Of a stretch of 64,000 nt of DNA, positions 18,027 through 25,961 are shown one piece after another. The first letter of the stretch is position 1, and the number at the start of each line of letters is the position of its first letter. The stretch is taken from NCBI GenBank assembly GCA_963751015.1, contig CAVVSU010000003.1:13681-77680 (forward strand), given 5' to 3'. The notes under the pieces were generated by a model. It saw only the letters and a program-made list of their open reading frames with translations, was not told where the DNA came from and searched no databases. The position numbers and the translations under genes were made by a program. Origin of the DNA: an uncultured Actinomycetes bacterium. Its GTDB lineage: Bacteria > Actinomycetota > Thermoleophilia > Solirubrobacterales > 70-9.

Positions 18027-18191
<165 letters not shown>

Positions 18192-18611: not shown

Positions 18612-18908
18612 ATGCACGACAAGCCTAGAGGCGCGGGCGATGATGAACGCGCCACGACCCCCGCCGAGCAGGATCTTCGCGACCAGGCGGCGGTCCTGAA
18701 TCACGTTCTCGCGCTCTTCCCGGAGACGCTGACGGAGCTGGAGCTGCTGAAGGAAATGACCGGCAGAGAGGAGGCGACGTTCGAGGAACGCGACCGCCAC
18801 CGGCGAGCTGTCCGCGATCTCGCCAAGGGCGGCCTGCTCGGAACTGAGACTAGGCGCGTCATCCCGACCAGGGCGGCCCTGTTTTTCCACGAGCTGGCCG
18901 AACTCTGA
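18612..18908 (+). CDS. Hypothetical winged-helix-like protein (island A)
   Basis: An AGGAGGGTG Shine-Dalgarno lies 9 nt upstream. The C-terminal ...AVRDLAKGGLLGTETRRVIPTRAALFFHEL pattern is typical of wHTH proteins on actinobacterial mobile elements. Confidence 0.55.
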   Translation: MHDKPRGAGDDERATTPAEQDLRDQAAVLNHVLALFPETLTELELLKEMTGREEATFEERDRHRRAVRDLAKGGLLGTETRRVIPTRAALFFHELAEL

Positions 18909-19195
18909 TGGACGGCAGGAGCGTGGACCGCGAGGTCGCCGGGCAGCTCGGGAGGAACGTATGGCTGGCCCGCCGCCGCGCCGGCTTCTCCCAGGAAGCG
19001 CTCGGCGCGGTTGCCTCCCTTCACCGCACCGAGATCGGATTGATCGAGCATGGGCAAAGACTGCCTCGCGTAGACACGCTGATGAGGCTTGCCGGAGCCC
19101 TCGACGTGCGCGTGGAAAGCCTGCTGGAGGGCATCGCCTGGATTGCGCCGGGTCCGAACGCGAGGGGCAGCTTCGTCGTCAGGAGGTTCGGATGA
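18908..19195 (+). CDS. XRE-family HTH transcriptional regulator (island A)
   Basis: GRNVWLARRRAGFSQEALGAVASLHRTEIGLIEHGQRLPRVDTLMRLAGAL is a Cro/C1-type HTH. Its ATG overlaps the upstream stop (TGATG). Confidence 0.8.
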   Translation: MDGRSVDREVAGQLGRNVWLARRRAGFSQEALGAVASLHRTEIGLIEHGQRLPRVDTLMRLAGALDVRVESLLEGIAWIAPGPNARGSFVVRRFG

Positions 19196-19821: not shown

Positions 19822-20019
19822 ATGCAGGCTAAAGCCAGCGGTCCGACCTTTTTCACCGAGCGCAGTCTTGCCGCCTACCTATCGGTCTCAGATAGGACCG
19901 TTCGCAACTGGATCAGGCGCGGCGAGCTGCCCAGCTACAAGCTCGGCGCATCCAGGCGGATCGACCCGACCGACGTTGCGACGTTCCTTGAGCAGCGGAG
20001 GGAGGAGGCGGCGGCATGA
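19822..20019 (+). CDS. xis: Excisionase-family (HTH_17/MerR-like) DNA-binding protein (alternative start 19771)
   Basis: FFTERSLAAYLSVSDRTVRNWIRRGELPSYKLGASRRIDPTDVATFLEQRR. Its stop overlaps the integrase start (ATGA at 20016). Confidence 0.8.
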   Translation: MQAKASGPTFFTERSLAAYLSVSDRTVRNWIRRGELPSYKLGASRRIDPTDVATFLEQRREEAAA

Positions 20020-21104
20020 GGCGAGACACCCCCGTCAAGCGTCGCAACCCATCTGGGCAGGTTGTGTGGGTCGCCAGGTACACCGGCCGCGACGGTCGTC
20101 GCCAGATCGCCAAGCCGTCTTGGAACCGAGGCAAAGGCACCTTCGTCAGGAAGGGCGAAGCGCAGAAAGCGATTGACGAGGCGTACGGCTTCTCGGACCG
20201 GCCGGACACCCTAGGCGACTATTCCGCGACCTGGACCGAGAGACACCCACGCTCGGAACGGACCAACGCGACGAACGAGCATCGGATCAGCCGAGTCACC
20301 GAGATCCAAGTCGAGGGGATCGCGTTGAAGGACTGGCCGATGCGCGAGCTGCGCCGCCGCCATGCGCTCGCCTTGGTCGACCACATGCTCAGGGTCGAAG
20401 GCCGAGCCACCACCGGAGCGGTCGGGATCATCCGCTCGCTATCGGCAATGACCGAGGACGCGATCACCGACGAAGTCTGCGACCTCAACCCGTTCAAGGG
20501 CGTGCGGATCAGAGCCAGCGATCCGAGAGCGCAGAAGAAGCCCCGCCCGATCCGCGTCTTCACCTTCGAGGAAATGCACCGCTTCGCCAAGTCGGCGGGC
20601 GACTACGAGGCGATGGTCCGCGTCTTCACCGACACCGGCCTCAGACTGGGGGAGGTCCTTCCGCTCCGCCGCGAAGACTTCGACGGCGAGACTCTCCAGG
20701 TCCGCCGCACGGCGCACGAGGGCCAGATCCTCGAGGGCACGAAGACCGACCACGGCGAGCTAGACGCTGGCCGCGTCGTCCCCGTCCCGGCAACTCTCGC
20801 CTGGATGCTCGAAGCGCAGCTCCAAGTCAGCGACGAGAGCGACCTGCTCTTCACGACTCCGACCGGCCGCATGTGGCGCGAGCGCAACTTCTACCGCGAC
20901 CTTTGGAGGCCCGCGCAAGAAGCCTCCGACCTAGACATCCGCCCCCATGAGTGCCGCCACAGCTACGTCACGCACTTACGAGCTGCCGGCGTCAACGACG
21001 CCGACTTGGCCGAGATCGCGGGACACCGCGTTGAGACGATGCTGGCCCGGTACACGCATGCGGTAGGCGAGAGCTTCCCGTCTGTCAGAGCCGCTATTGG
21101 CTAG
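20016..21104 (+). CDS. int: Tyrosine recombinase / phage-type integrase
   Basis: The C-terminal catalytic region ...TGLRLGEVLPLRRED...RPHECRHSYVTHLRAAGVNDADLAEIAGHRVETMLARYTH fits the R..HxxR..Y pattern. Confidence 0.95.
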   Translation: MRRDTPVKRRNPSGQVVWVARYTGRDGRRQIAKPSWNRGKGTFVRKGEAQKAIDEAYGFSDRPDTLGDYSATWTERHPRSERTNATNEHRISRVTEIQVEGIALKDWPMRELRRRHALALVDHMLRVEGRATTGAVGIIRSLSAMTEDAITDEVCDLNPFKGVRIRASDPRAQKKPRPIRVFTFEEMHRFAKSAGDYEAMVRVFTDTGLRLGEVLPLRREDFDGETLQVRRTAHEGQILEGTKTDHGELDAGRVVPVPATLAWMLEAQLQVSDESDLLFTTPTGRMWRERNFYRDLWRPAQEASDLDIRPHECRHSYVTHLRAAGVNDADLAEIAGHRVETMLARYTHAVGESFPSVRAAIG

Positions 21105-21167
21105 TTGGATCGCCAGCCGAGGAGGAAACCGCTGCAAACCTTCGCAATTTTGGTGCTCCCCTTGACG

Positions 21168-21237
21168 CTGGCGGTAAAATCGATCAAGTCTCGCTTTAAG
21201 CGAGACGACCCTCTGGGTTGATCGATTTTACCGCCAG
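21168..21237. repeat. Perfect 20-bp inverted repeat enclosing a nested 7-bp hairpin
   Basis: CTGGCGGTAAAATCGATCAA (21168-21187) / TTGATCGATTTTACCGCCAG (21218-21237). The inner hairpin is GTCTCGC-TTTAA-GCGAGAC (21188-21206). It lies in an AT-rich spacer between the convergent int and GNAT-like genes. Confidence 0.8.
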
Positions 21238-21355
21238 CTAAAAGGGATTCACGATTTTCTGGTTTTCTGCTCCCCGCTCCGGTAACTTGTTTATCCGAGT
21301 ACCCGGGTACAGCCCTATGAAGGATCTGTTCCCCCGAGCCGATTAGGAACTCAAG

Positions 21356-21523
21356 ATGGCGCTTATAACTGACATCCGAGTGGCGACGAAAATTGACGGC
21401 GACGACTTTGACGCCGCACGGAAAGATTCGAAGGTCAGCGCTCTGGTTCGTGCTTCCCGCAAGTATGGAGATGAACTCCGGAAGAGCGGGAAAGATCACT
21501 CTTTGGCCCCCTCTGGCCGGTAG
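21356..21523 (+). CDS. Candidate 55-aa small ORF (hypothetical)
   Basis: Hand translation gives MALITDIRVATKIDGDDFDAARKDSKVSALVRASRKYGDELRKSGKDHSLAPSGR*. AGGAA lies about 6 nt upstream, and codon GC3 is low like the rest of the island cargo. It is below the ORF-track size cutoff. Confidence 0.3.
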   Translation: MALITDIRVATKIDGDDFDAARKDSKVSALVRASRKYGDELRKSGKDHSLAPSGR

Positions 21524-21531
21524 CCAGCTCG

Positions 21532-22143
21532 CTACTCCAGTCCCCGGTCAAACGGGCCCATATAAGGACCGGTCAGCGGGAGATAGAGGCGCCGCAGCTC
21601 CCCACCCTCGTCCTGGGTTTGAGAGTTTCGGAGTCCCTTTGCTCGCCACATTCCCTGCGTCTCCAAGTCAAAGGGATCCAGCGTAAGGATTACGTTCCCC
21701 TGTAGCTCCGCGACCAAGCTAGCGACGTAGATCGCATGCCTGAGTGCCTTATCGCCTGCTCCGGCGGGGGCTCGCCGATCCCTTGCTATCCACTCAACAT
21801 GGGAAGAGCCGAACCTCGCCCCTCCTCCGCCCATTTGAGCCTGGTACTTCTCCGAGGTGATGATGGCCTCACCCGAGCTAAGCGCATAGAAGGCCGCCAC
21901 GTGGCCTTGGGCAACGAGGATGCGCGTTACGCAGACGGTTAGTTCGGCCGCCCGGTCTCTGAACCATTCCGTCCCCTCCTTGGCAGCCGCTTGATTCCTT
22001 GAATATGCCTCGAAGTCGGCGACGGCATCGCCAAGATCGGGCCGTTCCTCGGCGACCTGCAGGTTCCACTGAAACCACTCTGCCTCGTGAAGGTCGCCTG
22101 CGGTTAGCTGCCAGTCCTCCGCCATGTCTTGATCTTGTCGCAT
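21532..22143 (-). CDS. Hypothetical protein, possibly GNAT-like acetyltransferase fold (island A cargo). Alternative starts at 22185 (TTG) and 22125 (ATG).
   Basis: ...VAAFYALSSGEAIITSE...GSSHVEWIARDRRAPAGAGDKALRHAIYVASLVAELQGNVILTLDPFDLETQGMWRAKGL loosely resembles the GNAT beta4-alpha3 (RxxGxG/A-like) and C-terminal region. This is weak, motif-level similarity only. Confidence 0.4.
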   Translation of the reverse strand: MRQDQDMAEDWQLTAGDLHEAEWFQWNLQVAEERPDLGDAVADFEAYSRNQAAAKEGTEWFRDRAAELTVCVTRILVAQGHVAAFYALSSGEAIITSEKYQAQMGGGGARFGSSHVEWIARDRRAPAGAGDKALRHAIYVASLVAELQGNVILTLDPFDLETQGMWRAKGLRNSQTQDEGGELRRLYLPLTGPYMGPFDRGLE

Positions 22144-22303
22144 AAGGCCGATGACCCTGCCAGCCCCGGGTATCGCGGCCCTCAAGACCGATGAGTCAGC
22201 GCCTGCGTGGAACTCGGGCTCTAGACATTCAACGACGCAGAACTTCTAGGCCGCTTAACCGTGCAGCACAATCCTCGCGCGTAACTGGTGGTTTTGGCGT
22301 CCG

Positions 22304-22996
22304 ATGCTCCCTTCAAGCTCCAAGACAATGAGTTGGAGAAAGATTGCGCCAGGGGCTTGGGGGGAGCAGTTGCGACTCGGAATCCTGGCCGCCCTGCAAC
22401 AAGTCTACGACGAGAACTGCGAGAGGCACGCGCCGGAAGATATCGGCGACAACAACAAAACCTTCGGGATCAACGTTTCGGAGAACCTCCGGTTTGTCGT
22501 CGAACGTGACGTGATTCCAGTAATTGACGGCGCGGGAGTCGAGACCTCGCGTGGTGCTTGGATGATTCGACTCTGGGGCGGCAAGCTCGTCCATATCTAT
22601 AAGGCGCCACCTGGTGCCCTGGATGTCCGCGAGTTCCGCTTCAACGTGTCGAAAGTCAAGCTGGAACTCGTTTCGCAGAATGCCAATCAGCTGCAGCTGT
22701 TTGAGGAAGAGGGATTCCAGAGTCACGGAGCCGAGGATCTTCAACACGTAGTGATCGTCCACTTCGGCGATCCCCAGAATGGCCTCACTCGCGTAGACGT
22801 GGGTGCGCCATGTCTTGACGAGGCGCTTGGCTATCAGTGGATCTGGTCAGCACCCTTCAGCGAGCTTGAGCCGCTACAAGAGGCCGACGGGGGCGATGGC
22901 GCAGTAGGCTCCAATTCAATGGACGACGAGGACTTCGGCTTGGAGATGCGCGACGTTGACGAGGACGATCGTAAGGATCTCCTGGGTGAGGCGTGA
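22304..22996 (+). CDS. Orphan hypothetical protein with a highly acidic C-terminal tail (island A cargo). Alternative start 22328.
   Basis: It is a 230-aa coherent ORF in the low-GC cargo region. I recognise no motif. The tail reads ...EADGGDGAVGSNSMDDEDFGLEMRDVDEDDRKDLLGEA. Its stop overlaps the downstream start (GTGA at 22993-22996). Confidence 0.6.
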   Translation: MLPSSSKTMSWRKIAPGAWGEQLRLGILAALQQVYDENCERHAPEDIGDNNKTFGINVSENLRFVVERDVIPVIDGAGVETSRGAWMIRLWGGKLVHIYKAPPGALDVREFRFNVSKVKLELVSQNANQLQLFEEEGFQSHGAEDLQHVVIVHFGDPQNGLTRVDVGAPCLDEALGYQWIWSAPFSELEPLQEADGGDGAVGSNSMDDEDFGLEMRDVDEDDRKDLLGEA

Positions 22997-24111
22997 GCCT
23001 GGACGCGCGGAGCGCAGCCGCGCTGTTTGATCCCTCCCGCCTTCGCCTCGCCCGCCAACTCAAAGGCTTAAAGCGCTCTCAGCTCGCGGAGCTGGTGGGC
23101 CTCTCCGCTCCTGCTGTTAGCCAATTCGAGAGCGGTGTTACGAAGCCACGTCCCTCAACTTTGGCCGAGATCTCGTTGCGACTGGGGATGCCGGCGGCCT
23201 TTTTTGCTTCGACTGGGCGACCGCTGCAGTCCGTTCCTACCGAGGAGACCTTCTTCCGAAGCCTGAGGCGCACGTCCCAGCTCGACCGTGAACGGGCTGC
23301 CGCGCATGCTGTCCTCCTAGCGGAACTCGTCAGGATCATCGAGGGCCGGGTGAAGCTCCCCGCCTACGACGTGCCAGTTGACTTAACCCTTCGAGCCGAT
23401 GAGTCACTCGAGGCTGCAGAAACAATCGCCAACGGTCTCCGCTCCCGGTGGGATCTTGGGGAAGAGCCGATTCCCAGCACGGTCAGGGTGTTGGAGAGGC
23501 GTGGAGTTCCAGTTGCTCGCCTTCCCCTGCTCACGTCTGACGTGGATGCATTCTCGACTGTCGCGACTACCCGCCCCGTGATTGTCCTGGGTGCGGATAA
23601 GGGAGTTCGGGAGCGGTCGCGGCGTGATGCCTTGCACGAGCTAGGGCACTTGGTGATGCACCATGCCGAACCTGAGGCAGCGAGCCCTCCATTAGAGCGA
23701 CAGGCCGAGCGGTTCGCTTCCGCCCTCCTATTTCCGGCGACTGCATTTATGGACGAGTGGCCCCAGGGAAATCGACTGGATTGGCCGCGTTTGATGAGTC
23801 TGAAGGCACGTTGGGGGATGTCCCTCGGTGCCCTTCTTTATCGAGCTAGAGAGTTGAGTCTTCTATCGCCTACGGCATATGAGTCCGCCGTGAAGTACAT
23901 GTCGAAGAAGGGGTGGCGGACCCGCGAGCCCGGACCTTCCGGGGAGCCAGAGGAGCCGAAACTACTGAGCGATGCGCTGGCACTCATGGTTGAGAATCAG
24001 GTCGATGTCGACCGACTGCTGGCCGAGAATGGTCTACCTAGCGCCGACCATCTGGCGGCCCTACTTAGGGTCGAGTCTCGACAGCCACAGCGCCTTAAGC
24101 TGGCTGTCTAA
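22993..24111 (+). CDS. XRE-HTH / ImmA-IrrE (COG2856, DUF955) zinc-metalloprotease fusion protein
   Basis: N-terminal HTH LKRSQLAELVGLSAPAVSQFESGVTKPRPSTLAEISLRLG. The central HEXXH motif is HELGH (codons about 23635-23649) in ...RRDALHELGHLVMHH...ERQAERFASALLFP, which is typical of ImmA/IrrE. Confidence 0.85.
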   Translation: MSLDARSAAALFDPSRLRLARQLKGLKRSQLAELVGLSAPAVSQFESGVTKPRPSTLAEISLRLGMPAAFFASTGRPLQSVPTEETFFRSLRRTSQLDRERAAAHAVLLAELVRIIEGRVKLPAYDVPVDLTLRADESLEAAETIANGLRSRWDLGEEPIPSTVRVLERRGVPVARLPLLTSDVDAFSTVATTRPVIVLGADKGVRERSRRDALHELGHLVMHHAEPEAASPPLERQAERFASALLFPATAFMDEWPQGNRLDWPRLMSLKARWGMSLGALLYRARELSLLSPTAYESAVKYMSKKGWRTREPGPSGEPEEPKLLSDALALMVENQVDVDRLLAENGLPSADHLAALLRVESRQPQRLKLAV

Positions 24112-24172
24112 CCCGGGGTCGCATCCCGGTCACATCAGCGCCGCAACAGCCGCTCCGCCGCCACGCTCTCCT

Positions 24173-24220
24173 GGTCTACGAAACCGAAGGTCACAGGTTC
24201 AAATCCTGTCGGGCGCGTTC
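24173..24220 (+). repeat. attR of island A / attL of island B: 48-bp direct repeat, copy 2
   Basis: It is identical to 18089-18136 and is the 3' half of tRNA-Arg without the 5' half. Confidence 0.9.
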
Positions 24221-24702
24221 GCGCGATGTCGCTTGTGAAGCGGGTTGCGGACTTCTGGGGAATCGGCCGGGAGGCCGATCGGCGACGAGATCGCCGCGAT
24301 TGGACAGCTTGGCGAGGCTGCGGCGCGGCGGGCTCGTCCACCAGTGCGGGGACTTCGCCTTCCCCTTTAGGCCGGCCTTGGAGGGGGCCGCCGTCTGGGG
24401 CACGTGCTCGCGGCGGGAGACTGAGGTGGGGGCGGAGCCTCACGCGGGAAATAGCCCCGGCGGACGAGTTCAATCGCCGAGACAGGTGTGGCATCTGACG
24501 TCACGAGCGCTAGGCACCCGATGCAGATGCCCCGATACGTTCCAAATGCCGGAGGGCTTTACTTTGCGATAGCCGTACCTTCGGCGCCATCGTCTGGTCA
24601 ACATTTTGAAAGCAGTCTTGGTTTCGGTCCGGTCTTGTTCGCGGAGCTGGAGACCAACACTCGATGTATCGTGTATCGATACCTGATACGCTAGTTGCAT
24701 CT

Positions 24703-25230
24703 ATGGTCAAGAAGTCGGACATCTACGTACTCAGTGGCCTCTTGGCTGAGGGCGGTGACTGGAGCTACAGGTCCCTGGCCGAGCGCTTGCGCGTTCCGCA
24801 TCCCGTGGTTCAGCGGGCGCTTGCGCGCGCTCAGGACGGGGATCTTTATTCGCTCGAGCGACGACAGGTTCATGTTCCGCACTTTGAGGAGTTCGCGCTC
24901 CACGCGCTGCGCTTCGTCGCTCCGGCTCGGCTGGGTGCGCTCGTGCCGGGGGTTTCCGCCGCATGGGCGGCCGAGCCGATGGCCAGCGCGATCCGCTCCT
25001 CCGGTGAGGAGCCGCCACCGGTGTGGCCTTATGCCAGAGGCCGGGTGCGAGGTCAGGCGATTGAGCCGCTTCATCCCGCGGCGCCAGAGGCGGTGGAGGA
25101 CTGGCCGGAGCTGGGCGAGATCCTGGCGCTGCTCGACAGCCTGCGGGCCGGCGACTCGCGTGTCCGGCGGGTGGCCGGTGAACTTCTCATGGGCCTGCTG
25201 CAGGAGCGGGCGGGGGAGAGGAAACGCTGA
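24703..25230 (+). CDS. Winged-helix transcriptional regulator, putative AbiEi-like antitoxin (track ORF starts at 24664)
   Basis: MVKKSDIYVLSGLLAEGGDWSYRSLAERLRVPHPVVQRALARAQDGDLY is an N-terminal wHTH. It sits immediately upstream of a nucleotidyltransferase gene. Confidence 0.6.
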   Translation: MVKKSDIYVLSGLLAEGGDWSYRSLAERLRVPHPVVQRALARAQDGDLYSLERRQVHVPHFEEFALHALRFVAPARLGALVPGVSAAWAAEPMASAIRSSGEEPPPVWPYARGRVRGQAIEPLHPAAPEAVEDWPELGEILALLDSLRAGDSRVRRVAGELLMGLLQERAGERKR

Positions 25231-25274
25231 GCGCGCAGCAGCTCGAGATCGCGGCCGAGCTGCTCGGCCCGCTC

Positions 25275-25913
25275 TTGGACGAGGTCGTCTTCGTCGGCGG
25301 CGCGACGGTCCACCTCTGGCTCACCGAGCCCGGCGCGCCGCCCGCTCGCGCCACCGAGGACGTCGATGTCCTCTGCGAGGTCACCAGCCGCGCTGACTAC
25401 TACCGGCTCGGAGGGAAGCTGCGCGAGCGTGGCCTGCAGGAGGCGGCCGGCGCACCTGTGCTGTGTCGGTGGCAGAGCGCCGAGCCACGCCTGATCCTCG
25501 ACGTCATGCCGACCGACGCCGACATACTTGGTTTCTCCAACCCCTGGTACGAGGAGGCGATTTCGACCGCGGTGACGATCGCTCTCGACTCAGGTGCCGA
25601 GATCCGAGCCGCGACCCCGGTGCTGCTGGTGGCGACCAAGCTCTGCGCCTGGAAGGGTCGAGGCAGGGGAGACCTGCTGCGAAGCCTCGACGTCCACGAC
25701 GTGCTGACGCTGATCGACGGCCGCCCGGAGCTCATCGAGGAGATCGAGGTCGCCCCGTCGGGAATCGGTACCTACATCAAGGACGAGCTGACTGACCTGC
25801 GAACCGAGCCCTACTTCGACTATGCGGTCGAGGGTGCGACCGCCTCCTACGGCACGATCGGTATCGAGCGCGCCCAGCTCGTCCGGGACCGCATCGAGGG
25901 ACTGCTCGCCTGA
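25275..25913 (+). CDS. Nucleotidyltransferase-fold protein, putative AbiEii/DUF1814-like toxin
   Basis: VFVGGATVHLWL...ATEDVDVLCEV is a pol-beta-type NTase core (GG...DxD). There is no in-frame ATG or GTG between the upstream stop (25179) and the TTG at 25275, so the start is non-canonical (TTG, or the CTG at 25227). Confidence 0.6.
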   Translation: MDEVVFVGGATVHLWLTEPGAPPARATEDVDVLCEVTSRADYYRLGGKLRERGLQEAAGAPVLCRWQSAEPRLILDVMPTDADILGFSNPWYEEAISTAVTIALDSGAEIRAATPVLLVATKLCAWKGRGRGDLLRSLDVHDVLTLIDGRPELIEEIEVAPSGIGTYIKDELTDLRTEPYFDYAVEGATASYGTIGIERAQLVRDRIEGLLA

Positions 25914-25936
25914 CCTTCCTGGGACAACACAGGTTC

Positions 25937-25961
25937 AAATTCTGTCGGGCGCTTAGCTCCA
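25937..25961 (+). repeat. Degenerate third copy of the tRNA-Arg 3' end (outer att remnant)
   Basis: CACAGGTTCAAATTCTGTCGGGCGC matches the tRNA T-arm/acceptor segment CACAGGTTCAAATCCTGTCGGGCGC at 24 of 25 positions. Confidence 0.7.

Follow-up and report, generated by a model that had tools for sequence, protein, structure and literature searches.

RosmerTA systems and the locus under study

RosmerTA systems pair a Zn-peptidase antitoxin with a toxin of unknown function, and a version from which the antitoxin gene rmrA had been deleted was not transformable (Millman et al. 2022, 10.1101/2022.05.11.491447). The antitoxin with its ImmA domain serves as a hub, its partners being drawn from many unrelated RmrT families, and it is entered as node D25 'ImmA/Rosmer' of NetFlax (Ernits et al. 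2023, PMC10440598). Within the ImmA/Rosmer class the toxin-first order is the commoner one (58%), and the system of Gordonia phage Kita gives narrow anti-phage defence via a membrane-depolarising toxin (PMC10440598). RipAB (Spr1630/Spr1629) of Streptococcus pneumoniae is also a Rosmer pair, in which the antitoxin gene ripB is essential only when the toxin gene ripA is present, the RipA toxin binds a hydrophobic pocket of the DnaN sliding clamp, and the physiological role lies in competence induction (10.1101/2025.09.02.673660). Here we describe a gene pair located in a 64,000 nt stretch of DNA from an uncultured Actinomycetes bacterium (contig CAVVSU010000003.1), which is referred to throughout as the window and whose first nucleotide is position 1 of all coordinates given. 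The two genes, rmrT (22328..22996) and rmrA (22993..24111), very probably form a RosmerTA-type toxin-antitoxin (TA) cassette, and belong to the cargo of a 6.1 kb integrase island seated at a tRNA-Arg gene, of which they occupy the right end.

In every respect that can be examined from sequence the pair has the marks of RosmerTA, namely a predicted Zn-peptidase antitoxin, a partner recognised by an RmrT profile and a conserved adjacency of the two genes. As judged by these features it is a divergent member of a described kind that is already catalogued in PADLOC. The likeness extends to the organization as a two-gene operon, to an antitoxin of about 370 aa that joins an XRE-type helix-turn-helix (HTH) to an M78 domain, to a toxin without any known domain, to the toxin-first order, to residence on mobile elements and in defence islands, and to matches with both of the PADLOC models. 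An initial annotation of the window, made by reading the sequence, had proposed the locus as a candidate protease-gated toxin, abortive-infection or defence module with a 230 aa protein as its effector or substrate, and the kind of system in this proposal is borne out by the membership of the two proteins in the RmrT and RmrA families. The features that it listed were all confirmed: three open reading frames (ORFs), a GTGA overlap, an acidic tail, a fusion of HTH and HEXXH domains, and a position of low GC content within a tRNA-Arg island. Where the initial annotation went astray was in regarding the system as undescribed, as RosmerTA has been the name of this architecture since 2022 and PADLOC includes it.

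The putative antitoxin gene rmrA

The rmrA gene (22993..24111, forward strand) begins with GTG and encodes the putative antitoxin of 372 aa, arranged as an XRE-type HTH, a linker, an M78 domain and a C-terminal region. The HTH is located at approximately 23038-23208 on the forward strand (Pfam HTH_3, residues 17-69, E 6e-11), and the HTH segment is very basic, with an isoelectric point of 11.6. The ImmA/IrrE-type Zn-peptidase domain spans approximately 23494-23847 on the same strand (Pfam Peptidase_M78 / IrrE N-terminal-like, residues 168-285, E 4e-19). Within it the zinc-binding and catalytic motif HELGH can be read from the sequence at 23635..23649 (forward strand; residues 215-219, with H215, E216 and H219), and the likely third ligand is E235 within ERQAERFASALLFP, a residue that falls in the E..A..F motif typical of ImmA/IrrE. 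Across 16 RmrA sequences reaching down to about 49% identity, no substitution is seen at H215, E216, H219, H223, E235, A238 or F241. The linker joining the HTH and M78 domains has an FRSLRxT motif (residues 88-94, 23254-23274) that is likewise invariant in 16 sequences to the same depth, and that might serve as a hinge, be cleaved by the protein itself or bind a partner.

With the PADLOC RmrA model PDLC03955 the match of RmrA was full-length, covering positions 14-369 of the 371 in the model at E 3e-97; 13 further PADLOC RmrA models matched at E 1e-39 to 1e-77, and PHROG 2439 at E 6e-81. Residues 15-359 also matched NCBIfam NF052239, the 'spr1629 family repressor/antitoxin', at E 5e-39. The antitoxin of RipAB has the same HTH and ImmA-like architecture as RmrA, but the score of 134.5 bits is far below the curated equivalog cut-off of 335 bits, so RmrA does not belong to the same subfamily as RipB and identity with spr1629 was rejected. 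CapH/CapP was rejected as well, with PADLOC capP matched at E 1e-11 and capH at E 1.6e-4 as against E 3e-97 for RmrA. No components of CBASS were found among the other ORFs scanned on the island and the adjacent remnant, where the matches were to integrase, HTH/regulator and AbiEii-type models only.

More generally, RmrA resembles the ImmR/ImmA proteins of ICEBs1, DdrO/IrrE of Deinococcus and CapH/CapP of CBASS in combining an XRE HTH with an M78 HEXXH...E domain and in residing in mobile or defence loci. In those systems, however, the repressor and the protease are separate proteins controlling other genes (excision, the radiation regulon and CBASS, respectively), whereas in RmrA the two domains are fused, the gene is always coupled to one upstream toxin gene, and the homologous loci are without int or CBASS genes.

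The putative toxin gene rmrT

The initial annotation had listed three cargo ORFs, at 22304..22996 (forward, 230 aa), 22993..24111 (forward, 372 aa, GTG start) and 21532..22185 (reverse, 217 aa, TTG start). All three have homologues elsewhere and are real genes, not products of chance in a high-GC genome. Alignment with homologues moved two of the starts, to ATG 22143 in the reverse-strand gene and to ATG 22328 in rmrT. The rmrT product in this form begins MSWR and is 222 aa long, the in-frame ATG at 22304 being that of the 230 aa ORF, and residue numbers of RmrT given below refer to the 222 aa form.

RmrT, the putative toxin component (22328..22996, forward strand), matched the PADLOC RmrT model PDLC03941 at E 5e-19 over residues 23-172, which is the folded core with the acidic tail excluded. 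The same model was matched by 48 of the 50 family members scanned, the best at E 2e-25, and the protein can no longer be called the orphan for which it had been taken. Outside PADLOC little else was found. RmrT had no match in Pfam, NCBIfam or PHROG, all 50 family members searched against Pfam at E ≤ 1 gave nothing meaningful, the RmrT profile searched against PDB sequences gave noise only (E 0.36 or worse), and tblastn searches of plasmid and phage collections gave no match.

Homologues of RmrT were nevertheless readily obtained from protein collections. A word-index search of 5.8 billion proteins gave 12 close and 39 more distant homologues, and in a representative library of 1.84 billion proteins the family comprised 118 clusters at 50% identity with E ≤ 1e-3. 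The names of the distant representatives are all 'hypothetical protein' or absent. All 11 of the genome-derived RmrT loci belong to Solirubrobacterales or related actinobacterial metagenome-assembled genomes (MAGs), and the RmrT clade appears to be confined to these.

An AlphaFold2 (AF2) model of RmrT built from the 50-sequence alignment reached a mean predicted local distance difference test score (pLDDT) of 80 and a predicted template modelling score (pTM) of 0.74. The predicted topology is a1 a2 b1 b2 b3 a3 b4 b5 b6, with a folded core at residues 1-178 and a disordered tail from about residue 179. Polar residues conserved in the same alignment are E29, N30, R33, D41, N53, Y91, K92, N118, Q121 and H145, and this cluster suggests an enzyme-like site. 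The best Foldseek match of the model was to human Rep15 (E 1e-3, template modelling (TM) score 0.33), which was dismissed as insignificant, as were scattered nuclease matches. PD-(D/E)xK nucleases were among the weak matches (E 0.3-0.9, TM 0.2-0.35), and the predicted topology is compatible with the alpha-beta-beta-beta-alpha-beta core of these enzymes, which have D on strand 2 and (D/E)xK on strand 3, with K92 ending b3. Yet no acidic residue is conserved on b2 or b3, nor does the 50-sequence alignment show conservation of the canonical D...(D/E)xK residues.

Because no transmembrane segment was seen on inspection of RmrT, the protein is probably soluble and cytosolic. In this it differs from the RmrT(D5) toxin of the Kita system, which contains transmembrane segments and depolarises the membrane, while RmrT of the window has a long acidic tail with a conserved tail motif.

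Linkage and neighbourhood of the gene pair

The rmrT/rmrA junction reads GCGTGAGCC (also ...GAGGCGTGAGCC...), in which the TGA stop and the GTG start share 4 nt (GTGA), and the two genes are predicted to be translationally coupled. Conservation of the pair was followed in 17 distinct other loci, which are L001, L002, L003 (the same place as L004 and L005), L011-L021, L023, L024 and L025, with L022 being the same contig as L017. An HTH_3 plus Peptidase_M78 gene of 366-374 aa lies immediately downstream of the RmrT homologue in all 17. That homologues of the 230 aa protein should exist and keep company with HTH-COG2856 fusions, as the earlier proposal implied, was therefore seen in every locus examined. 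The linkage spans RmrT identities from 94% to about 30%, and in addition includes the profile-only relatives P0147 and P0173. Overlap of stop and start was compared in 16 pairs (that of the window and 15 of the 17 others), and is 4 nt (GTGA or TTGA) in 14 of them and 11 nt in the two most distant. The two proteins co-diverge, with RmrT/RmrA identities of 78/78, 62/70, 41/53 and 31/49%, and in the last three of these comparisons RmrA is the better-conserved partner. In two distant loci, L020 (5769-6686) and L021 (5784-6808), the rmrA homologue is split across frames in tblastn and is apparently frameshifted, which could be due to decay of the antitoxin gene or to indel errors in long-read MAGs.

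Upstream of rmrT a leader of about 75 nt (22253..22327, forward strand), presumably the site of the promoter and operator, is conserved in an alignment of 10 loci (L001-L003, L011-L016 and the window), while the sequence further upstream is unrelated. The conserved blocks are ACTTAA, CTCGCC, GTTTTTCCGTCC (GTTTTT-CCGTCC) and GCTCCxTTCA. Since the leader is kept among unrelated flanks, the cassette carries its own leader, from about position 22253. In the leaders of some loci, though not in that of the window, ACTTAAGT and CTGCAG form short palindromes.

Genes neighbouring the homologous pairs include a PsyrTA/ShosTA-like pair of phosphoribosyltransferase (PRTase) and DprA genes (L001), Thoeris ThsB/ThsA (L002), a ubiquitin-like Bub operon (L022), DNA methylases (L024), and a PLD-SNF2 helicase with an Eco57I-type gene (L025). 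None of these loci with defence neighbours has an annotated integrase, and no integrase was found within 4-6 kb of the homologous pair in several loci (L002, L023, L024 and L025). Taken together, the defence neighbours and the lack of a nearby integrase in these loci point to an autonomous defence-type cassette and not to an ImmR/ImmA-like regulator of the island. As a sign of an anti-phage role, the defence-island context of the homologues is circumstantial.

The same loci bear on the possibility that the HTH-M78 protein is a fused ImmR/ImmA-like switch for excision or transfer of the island after DNA damage, with the 222 aa protein as an accessory that is not a toxin. M78 proteases of the ImmA, IrrE and CapP type do cleave XRE repressors on damage signals, int and xis are found on the island together with further small HTH genes, and the weaker capP and capH matches would be in keeping with such a role. 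Nonetheless, the pair keeps both its partner and its overlap in the four loci where an integrase is not close by, its place on the island is at the end opposite to xis and int and it would be transcribed with its own conserved leader, and the full-length RmrA match is 60-85 orders of magnitude better than that to capP. With the fusion of the two domains in addition, an element regulator of the ImmR/ImmA type was rejected as the identity of the pair, and we regard a switch of this kind as very improbable.

Several points weigh against the assignment of the pair to RosmerTA, or against the functions that would follow from it. The match of RmrT to the PADLOC model is a remote one (67 bits), and Foldseek searches of its AF2 model against PDB and BFVD gave no significant structural analogue. 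In the leader of the window, the operator search found as its only exact palindrome one of 6 bp (arms at 22318 and 22333) that spans the rmrT start, and a sigma-70 consensus scan of the rmrT leader found no promoter-like site. Toxicity, neutralisation and defence would all be extrapolations, made from RosmerTA systems with toxins that share no sequence relationship with RmrT. Lastly, the two RosmerTA homologues tested in Streptococcus thermophilus were ineffective against most phages, and one homologue in that species lacked the M78 domain.

TA modules can stabilise islands, and the pair of the window could be an addiction module that stabilises its island by post-segregational killing and has no role in phage defence. 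The position of the pair on an integrative island, directly inside attR, would agree with this, as would the S. thermophilus results and the action of pneumococcal RipAB in competence induction rather than in demonstrated defence. On the other hand, homologous cassettes are found in chromosomal defence clusters without a nearby integrase, beside Thoeris, a PsyrTA-like pair, methylases and Eco57I-type genes, and anti-phage activity has been shown for members of the RosmerTA class. As such, stabilisation of the island as the sole function seems improbable, and addiction and defence are in any case not mutually exclusive.

The acidic tail of RmrT and a possible mechanism

The last 44 residues of RmrT (residues 179-222, nt 22862-22993) contain 17 acidic and 3 basic residues. 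Within this tail the codons of D-F-G-L-E-M-R (residues 202-208) are located at 22931..22951 on the forward strand. In the 50-sequence alignment the motif takes the form DF[GD]L[ER][ML]R, with F203, L205 and R208 nearly invariant, and many of the distant family representatives carry a related alternating-hydrophobic peptide, (E)P[DE]LxLxLR, near the C-terminus. On either side of the motif the AF2 model has a pLDDT below 50. The codons of the motif are placed 42-62 nt before the start of rmrA, and the residues that come after it are variable, so that its conservation acts on the protein and is not an effect of the rmrA ribosome-binding site. We consider the DFxLx[LM]R peptide a candidate docking or substrate peptide for RmrA. 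Together with the list of conserved core residues, the tail motif is the sole part of these findings that is possibly new.

If the cassette of the window were to act as other RosmerTA systems do, RmrT would be toxic, and RmrA would neutralise it while also repressing its own operon through the HTH. A phage-specific cue would then disable or redirect RmrA and so relieve the neutralisation, and the freed RmrT would arrest the infected cell, resulting in abortive infection that is probably of narrow phage range. To this we would add, with less certainty, a role for the tail. Zincins bind their substrates as an extended strand in the active-site groove, and the DFxLx[LM]R peptide may lie in the same manner in the peptidase groove of RmrA, either as substrate or as pseudosubstrate. 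Docking of the tail would couple neutralisation to the protease site. All of these steps beyond family membership are less certain than the membership, and the 'protease-gated' logic is hypothetical in the literature as it is here.

A further and more speculative proposal, which we think rather unlikely, is that the alternating-hydrophobic tail peptide is the functional key of the clade. In one form of this proposal (a) the peptide is a substrate or pseudosubstrate strand held in the M78 active site of RmrA, and in the other (b) it is a motif resembling those that bind the beta clamp (compare the clamp-binding hexapeptide QLxLxL). The latter was prompted by the binding of RipA to the hydrophobic pocket of DnaN. 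Its one support is that the tail motif loosely resembles QLxLxL, and we take it as speculative and of low probability.

The invariance of the RmrA catalytic site, and a conserved motif in the disordered RmrT tail that is extended and would fit a protease groove, could also be read in the opposite direction. RmrT could be a pro-toxin that is inhibited by its own acidic tail, with the RmrA protease removing the tail on a phage cue and thereby serving as activator, which is the 'protease-gated' logic of the initial annotation. Among the precedents, ImmA, IrrE and CapP all bring about activation by proteolysis. However, the peptidase proteins of those RosmerTA systems that have been studied were needed for viability when the toxin was present, as seen with the rmrA deletion and with ripB, and this is the behaviour of a neutraliser. 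By analogy with those systems, activation of the toxin by the protease fits less well than neutralisation and is in our estimation unlikely. A RosmerTA cassette in which RmrA is the neutraliser is the reading retained here.

The divergent GNAT-fold gene

Divergent from rmrT and outside the cassette lies a gene at 21532..22143 on the reverse strand, which encodes a protein of 203 aa with a GNAT fold like that of TacT, AtaT and KacT according to profile, AF2 and Foldseek comparisons. Searched against PDB sequences, the family profile matched TacT/KacT at E 1e-4. The AF2 model has a pLDDT of 86, and its top Foldseek matches are almost all tRNA-acetylating toxins (ItaT, AtaT, TacT, KacT and GmvT; E 5e-9 to 1e-6, target-normalised TM 0.65-0.76). 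The initial description of this gene as GNAT-like is thus upheld in the more specific form of a TacT/AtaT-type fold. Structure prediction with Foldseek, which had been recommended for both of the unplaced proteins, was informative for this one and gave no significant match for RmrT. No Pfam acetyltransferase model matched the protein.

In common with TacT, AtaT, KacT, ItaT and GmvT the divergent protein has, besides the GNAT fold, the ...G[FL]+xSQT segment. In contrast to these toxins, it has an invariant Trp where they have the catalytic Tyr (TacT Y140, AtaT Y144, KacT Y145). Opposite this residue, W180 in the numbering of the 217 aa ORF, the aligned TacT chains have their residue 140, which is Phe in the crystallised mutants; Tyr-to-Phe mutants of TacT-type toxins are inactive forms. 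The toxins also differ in having an adjacent antitoxin gene of the DUF1778/ribbon-helix-helix type, and none is found beside the divergent gene. The 184 nt gap upstream of it has no room for the ORF of a partner antitoxin, and no conserved partner was seen in the other loci of the family. The GNAT family is present as a lone gene in several Solirubrobacterales-type contigs, and may derive from tRNA-acetylating toxins that were inactivated or put to another use.

Because the GNAT gene and rmrT are divergent and separated by 184 nt, an arrangement also present in L011, and because the fold is that of TacT/AtaT-type toxins, the three genes could be thought to form one system, with the GNAT protein a functional partner of the pair, such as another effector under the control of the RmrA HTH via the common intergenic region. 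L011, however, is merely an 88%-identical copy of the same island segment (window 21203-24219). The GNAT gene is absent from the other 16 RmrTA loci, in L006-L010 its family occurs alone among unrelated genes, and the conserved rmrT leader stops about 110 nt short of the GNAT start. A three-gene system is largely refuted by these neighbourhood data, and of the explanations weighed here it is the one to which we give the least credence. From its distribution the GNAT gene is independent cargo and not a member of the cassette.

The island and adjacent sequences

The island of 6.1 kb that carries the cassette is delimited by a perfect pair of 48 nt direct repeats. The left copy, attL (18089..18136, forward strand), is the 3' part of the tRNA-Arg(ACG) gene located at 18059..18134. 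The right copy, attR (24173..24220, forward strand), is 100% identical to the left and begins 61 nt after the rmrA stop. Between the repeats are small HTH genes, an Xis-like HTH_17 gene (Pfam HTH_17, E 1.5e-13) that precedes the integrase gene and ends at 20019, a tyrosine integrase gene (20016..21104, forward strand; Pfam Phage_integrase, E 7e-17), and the three cargo genes. GC content of the three cargo genes is 0.58-0.62 compared with about 0.70 in the flanks. At third codon positions (GC3) the cargo genes have values of 0.65-0.68, against 0.93-0.95 for the flanking housekeeping genes and 0.84 for the integrase, and by this contrast the cargo is foreign in composition relative to its flanks.

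At the left end of the island a gene for a 98 aa protein without a family match (18612..18908) overlaps by 1 nt a gene for a 95 aa XRE HTH protein (18908..19195). These form a second coupled pair of an unknown and an XRE gene, for which a regulatory or a TA-like function is conceivable. An inverted repeat of 29 nt (90% complementary, 30 nt spacer) follows the integrase stop directly on its 3' side, at 21159-21246, and might act in termination, recombination or regulation; a terminator scan of this region flagged only a short stem-loop within the spacer (21206-21220).

Beyond attR a second, tandem island remnant occupies 24221-25956, between attR and a degenerate third att copy (25909-25956) that is 60% identical and has the core CACAGGTTCAAAT.CTGTCGGGCGC. 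The remnant carries a PADLOC candidate defence pair, PDC-M21A (24664..25230, E 8e-29) and PDC-M21B (25275..25913, E 6e-56), and the PDC-M21B product also matches the Pfam AbiEii nucleotidyltransferase. The site itself, tRNA-Arg(ACG) beside a block of PK, enoyl-CoA hydratase and DUF4442 genes, is a cargo hotspot in related genomes (18059-18136 in the window, 5570-5656 in L001 and 7418-7629 in L006). In L001 the rmrTA pair follows right after the tRNA-Arg gene and is itself followed by PRTase and DprA genes and RecA-like genes, and in L006 the tRNA-Arg site holds VapBC and a GNAT gene, with no integrase annotated in the stretch examined.

Implications for the RosmerTA class

A single PADLOC scan files the pair under RosmerTA, and with it a false lead towards an undescribed system is removed. 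What results from the present analysis is a coherent family of probably soluble RmrT proteins with a confident predicted fold that resembles nothing solved, and a list of conserved polar residues that is usable for mutagenesis. In addition, tRNA-Arg(ACG) is documented as a hotspot of defence cargo in this lineage. The tail peptide could also explain how the toxin is recognised by an antitoxin that bears a protease, a matter that concerns the RosmerTA class as a whole. If the peptide were held in the M78 active site, this would be the first concrete account of why the protease of Rosmer antitoxins has stayed intact, with neutralisation by capture or cleavage of the tail. If instead it were clamp-binding, the RmrT core would be targeted to the replisome, in parallel to the binding of the DnaN pocket by pneumococcal RipA. 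In either case, an uncharacterised toxin family would become mechanistically tractable.

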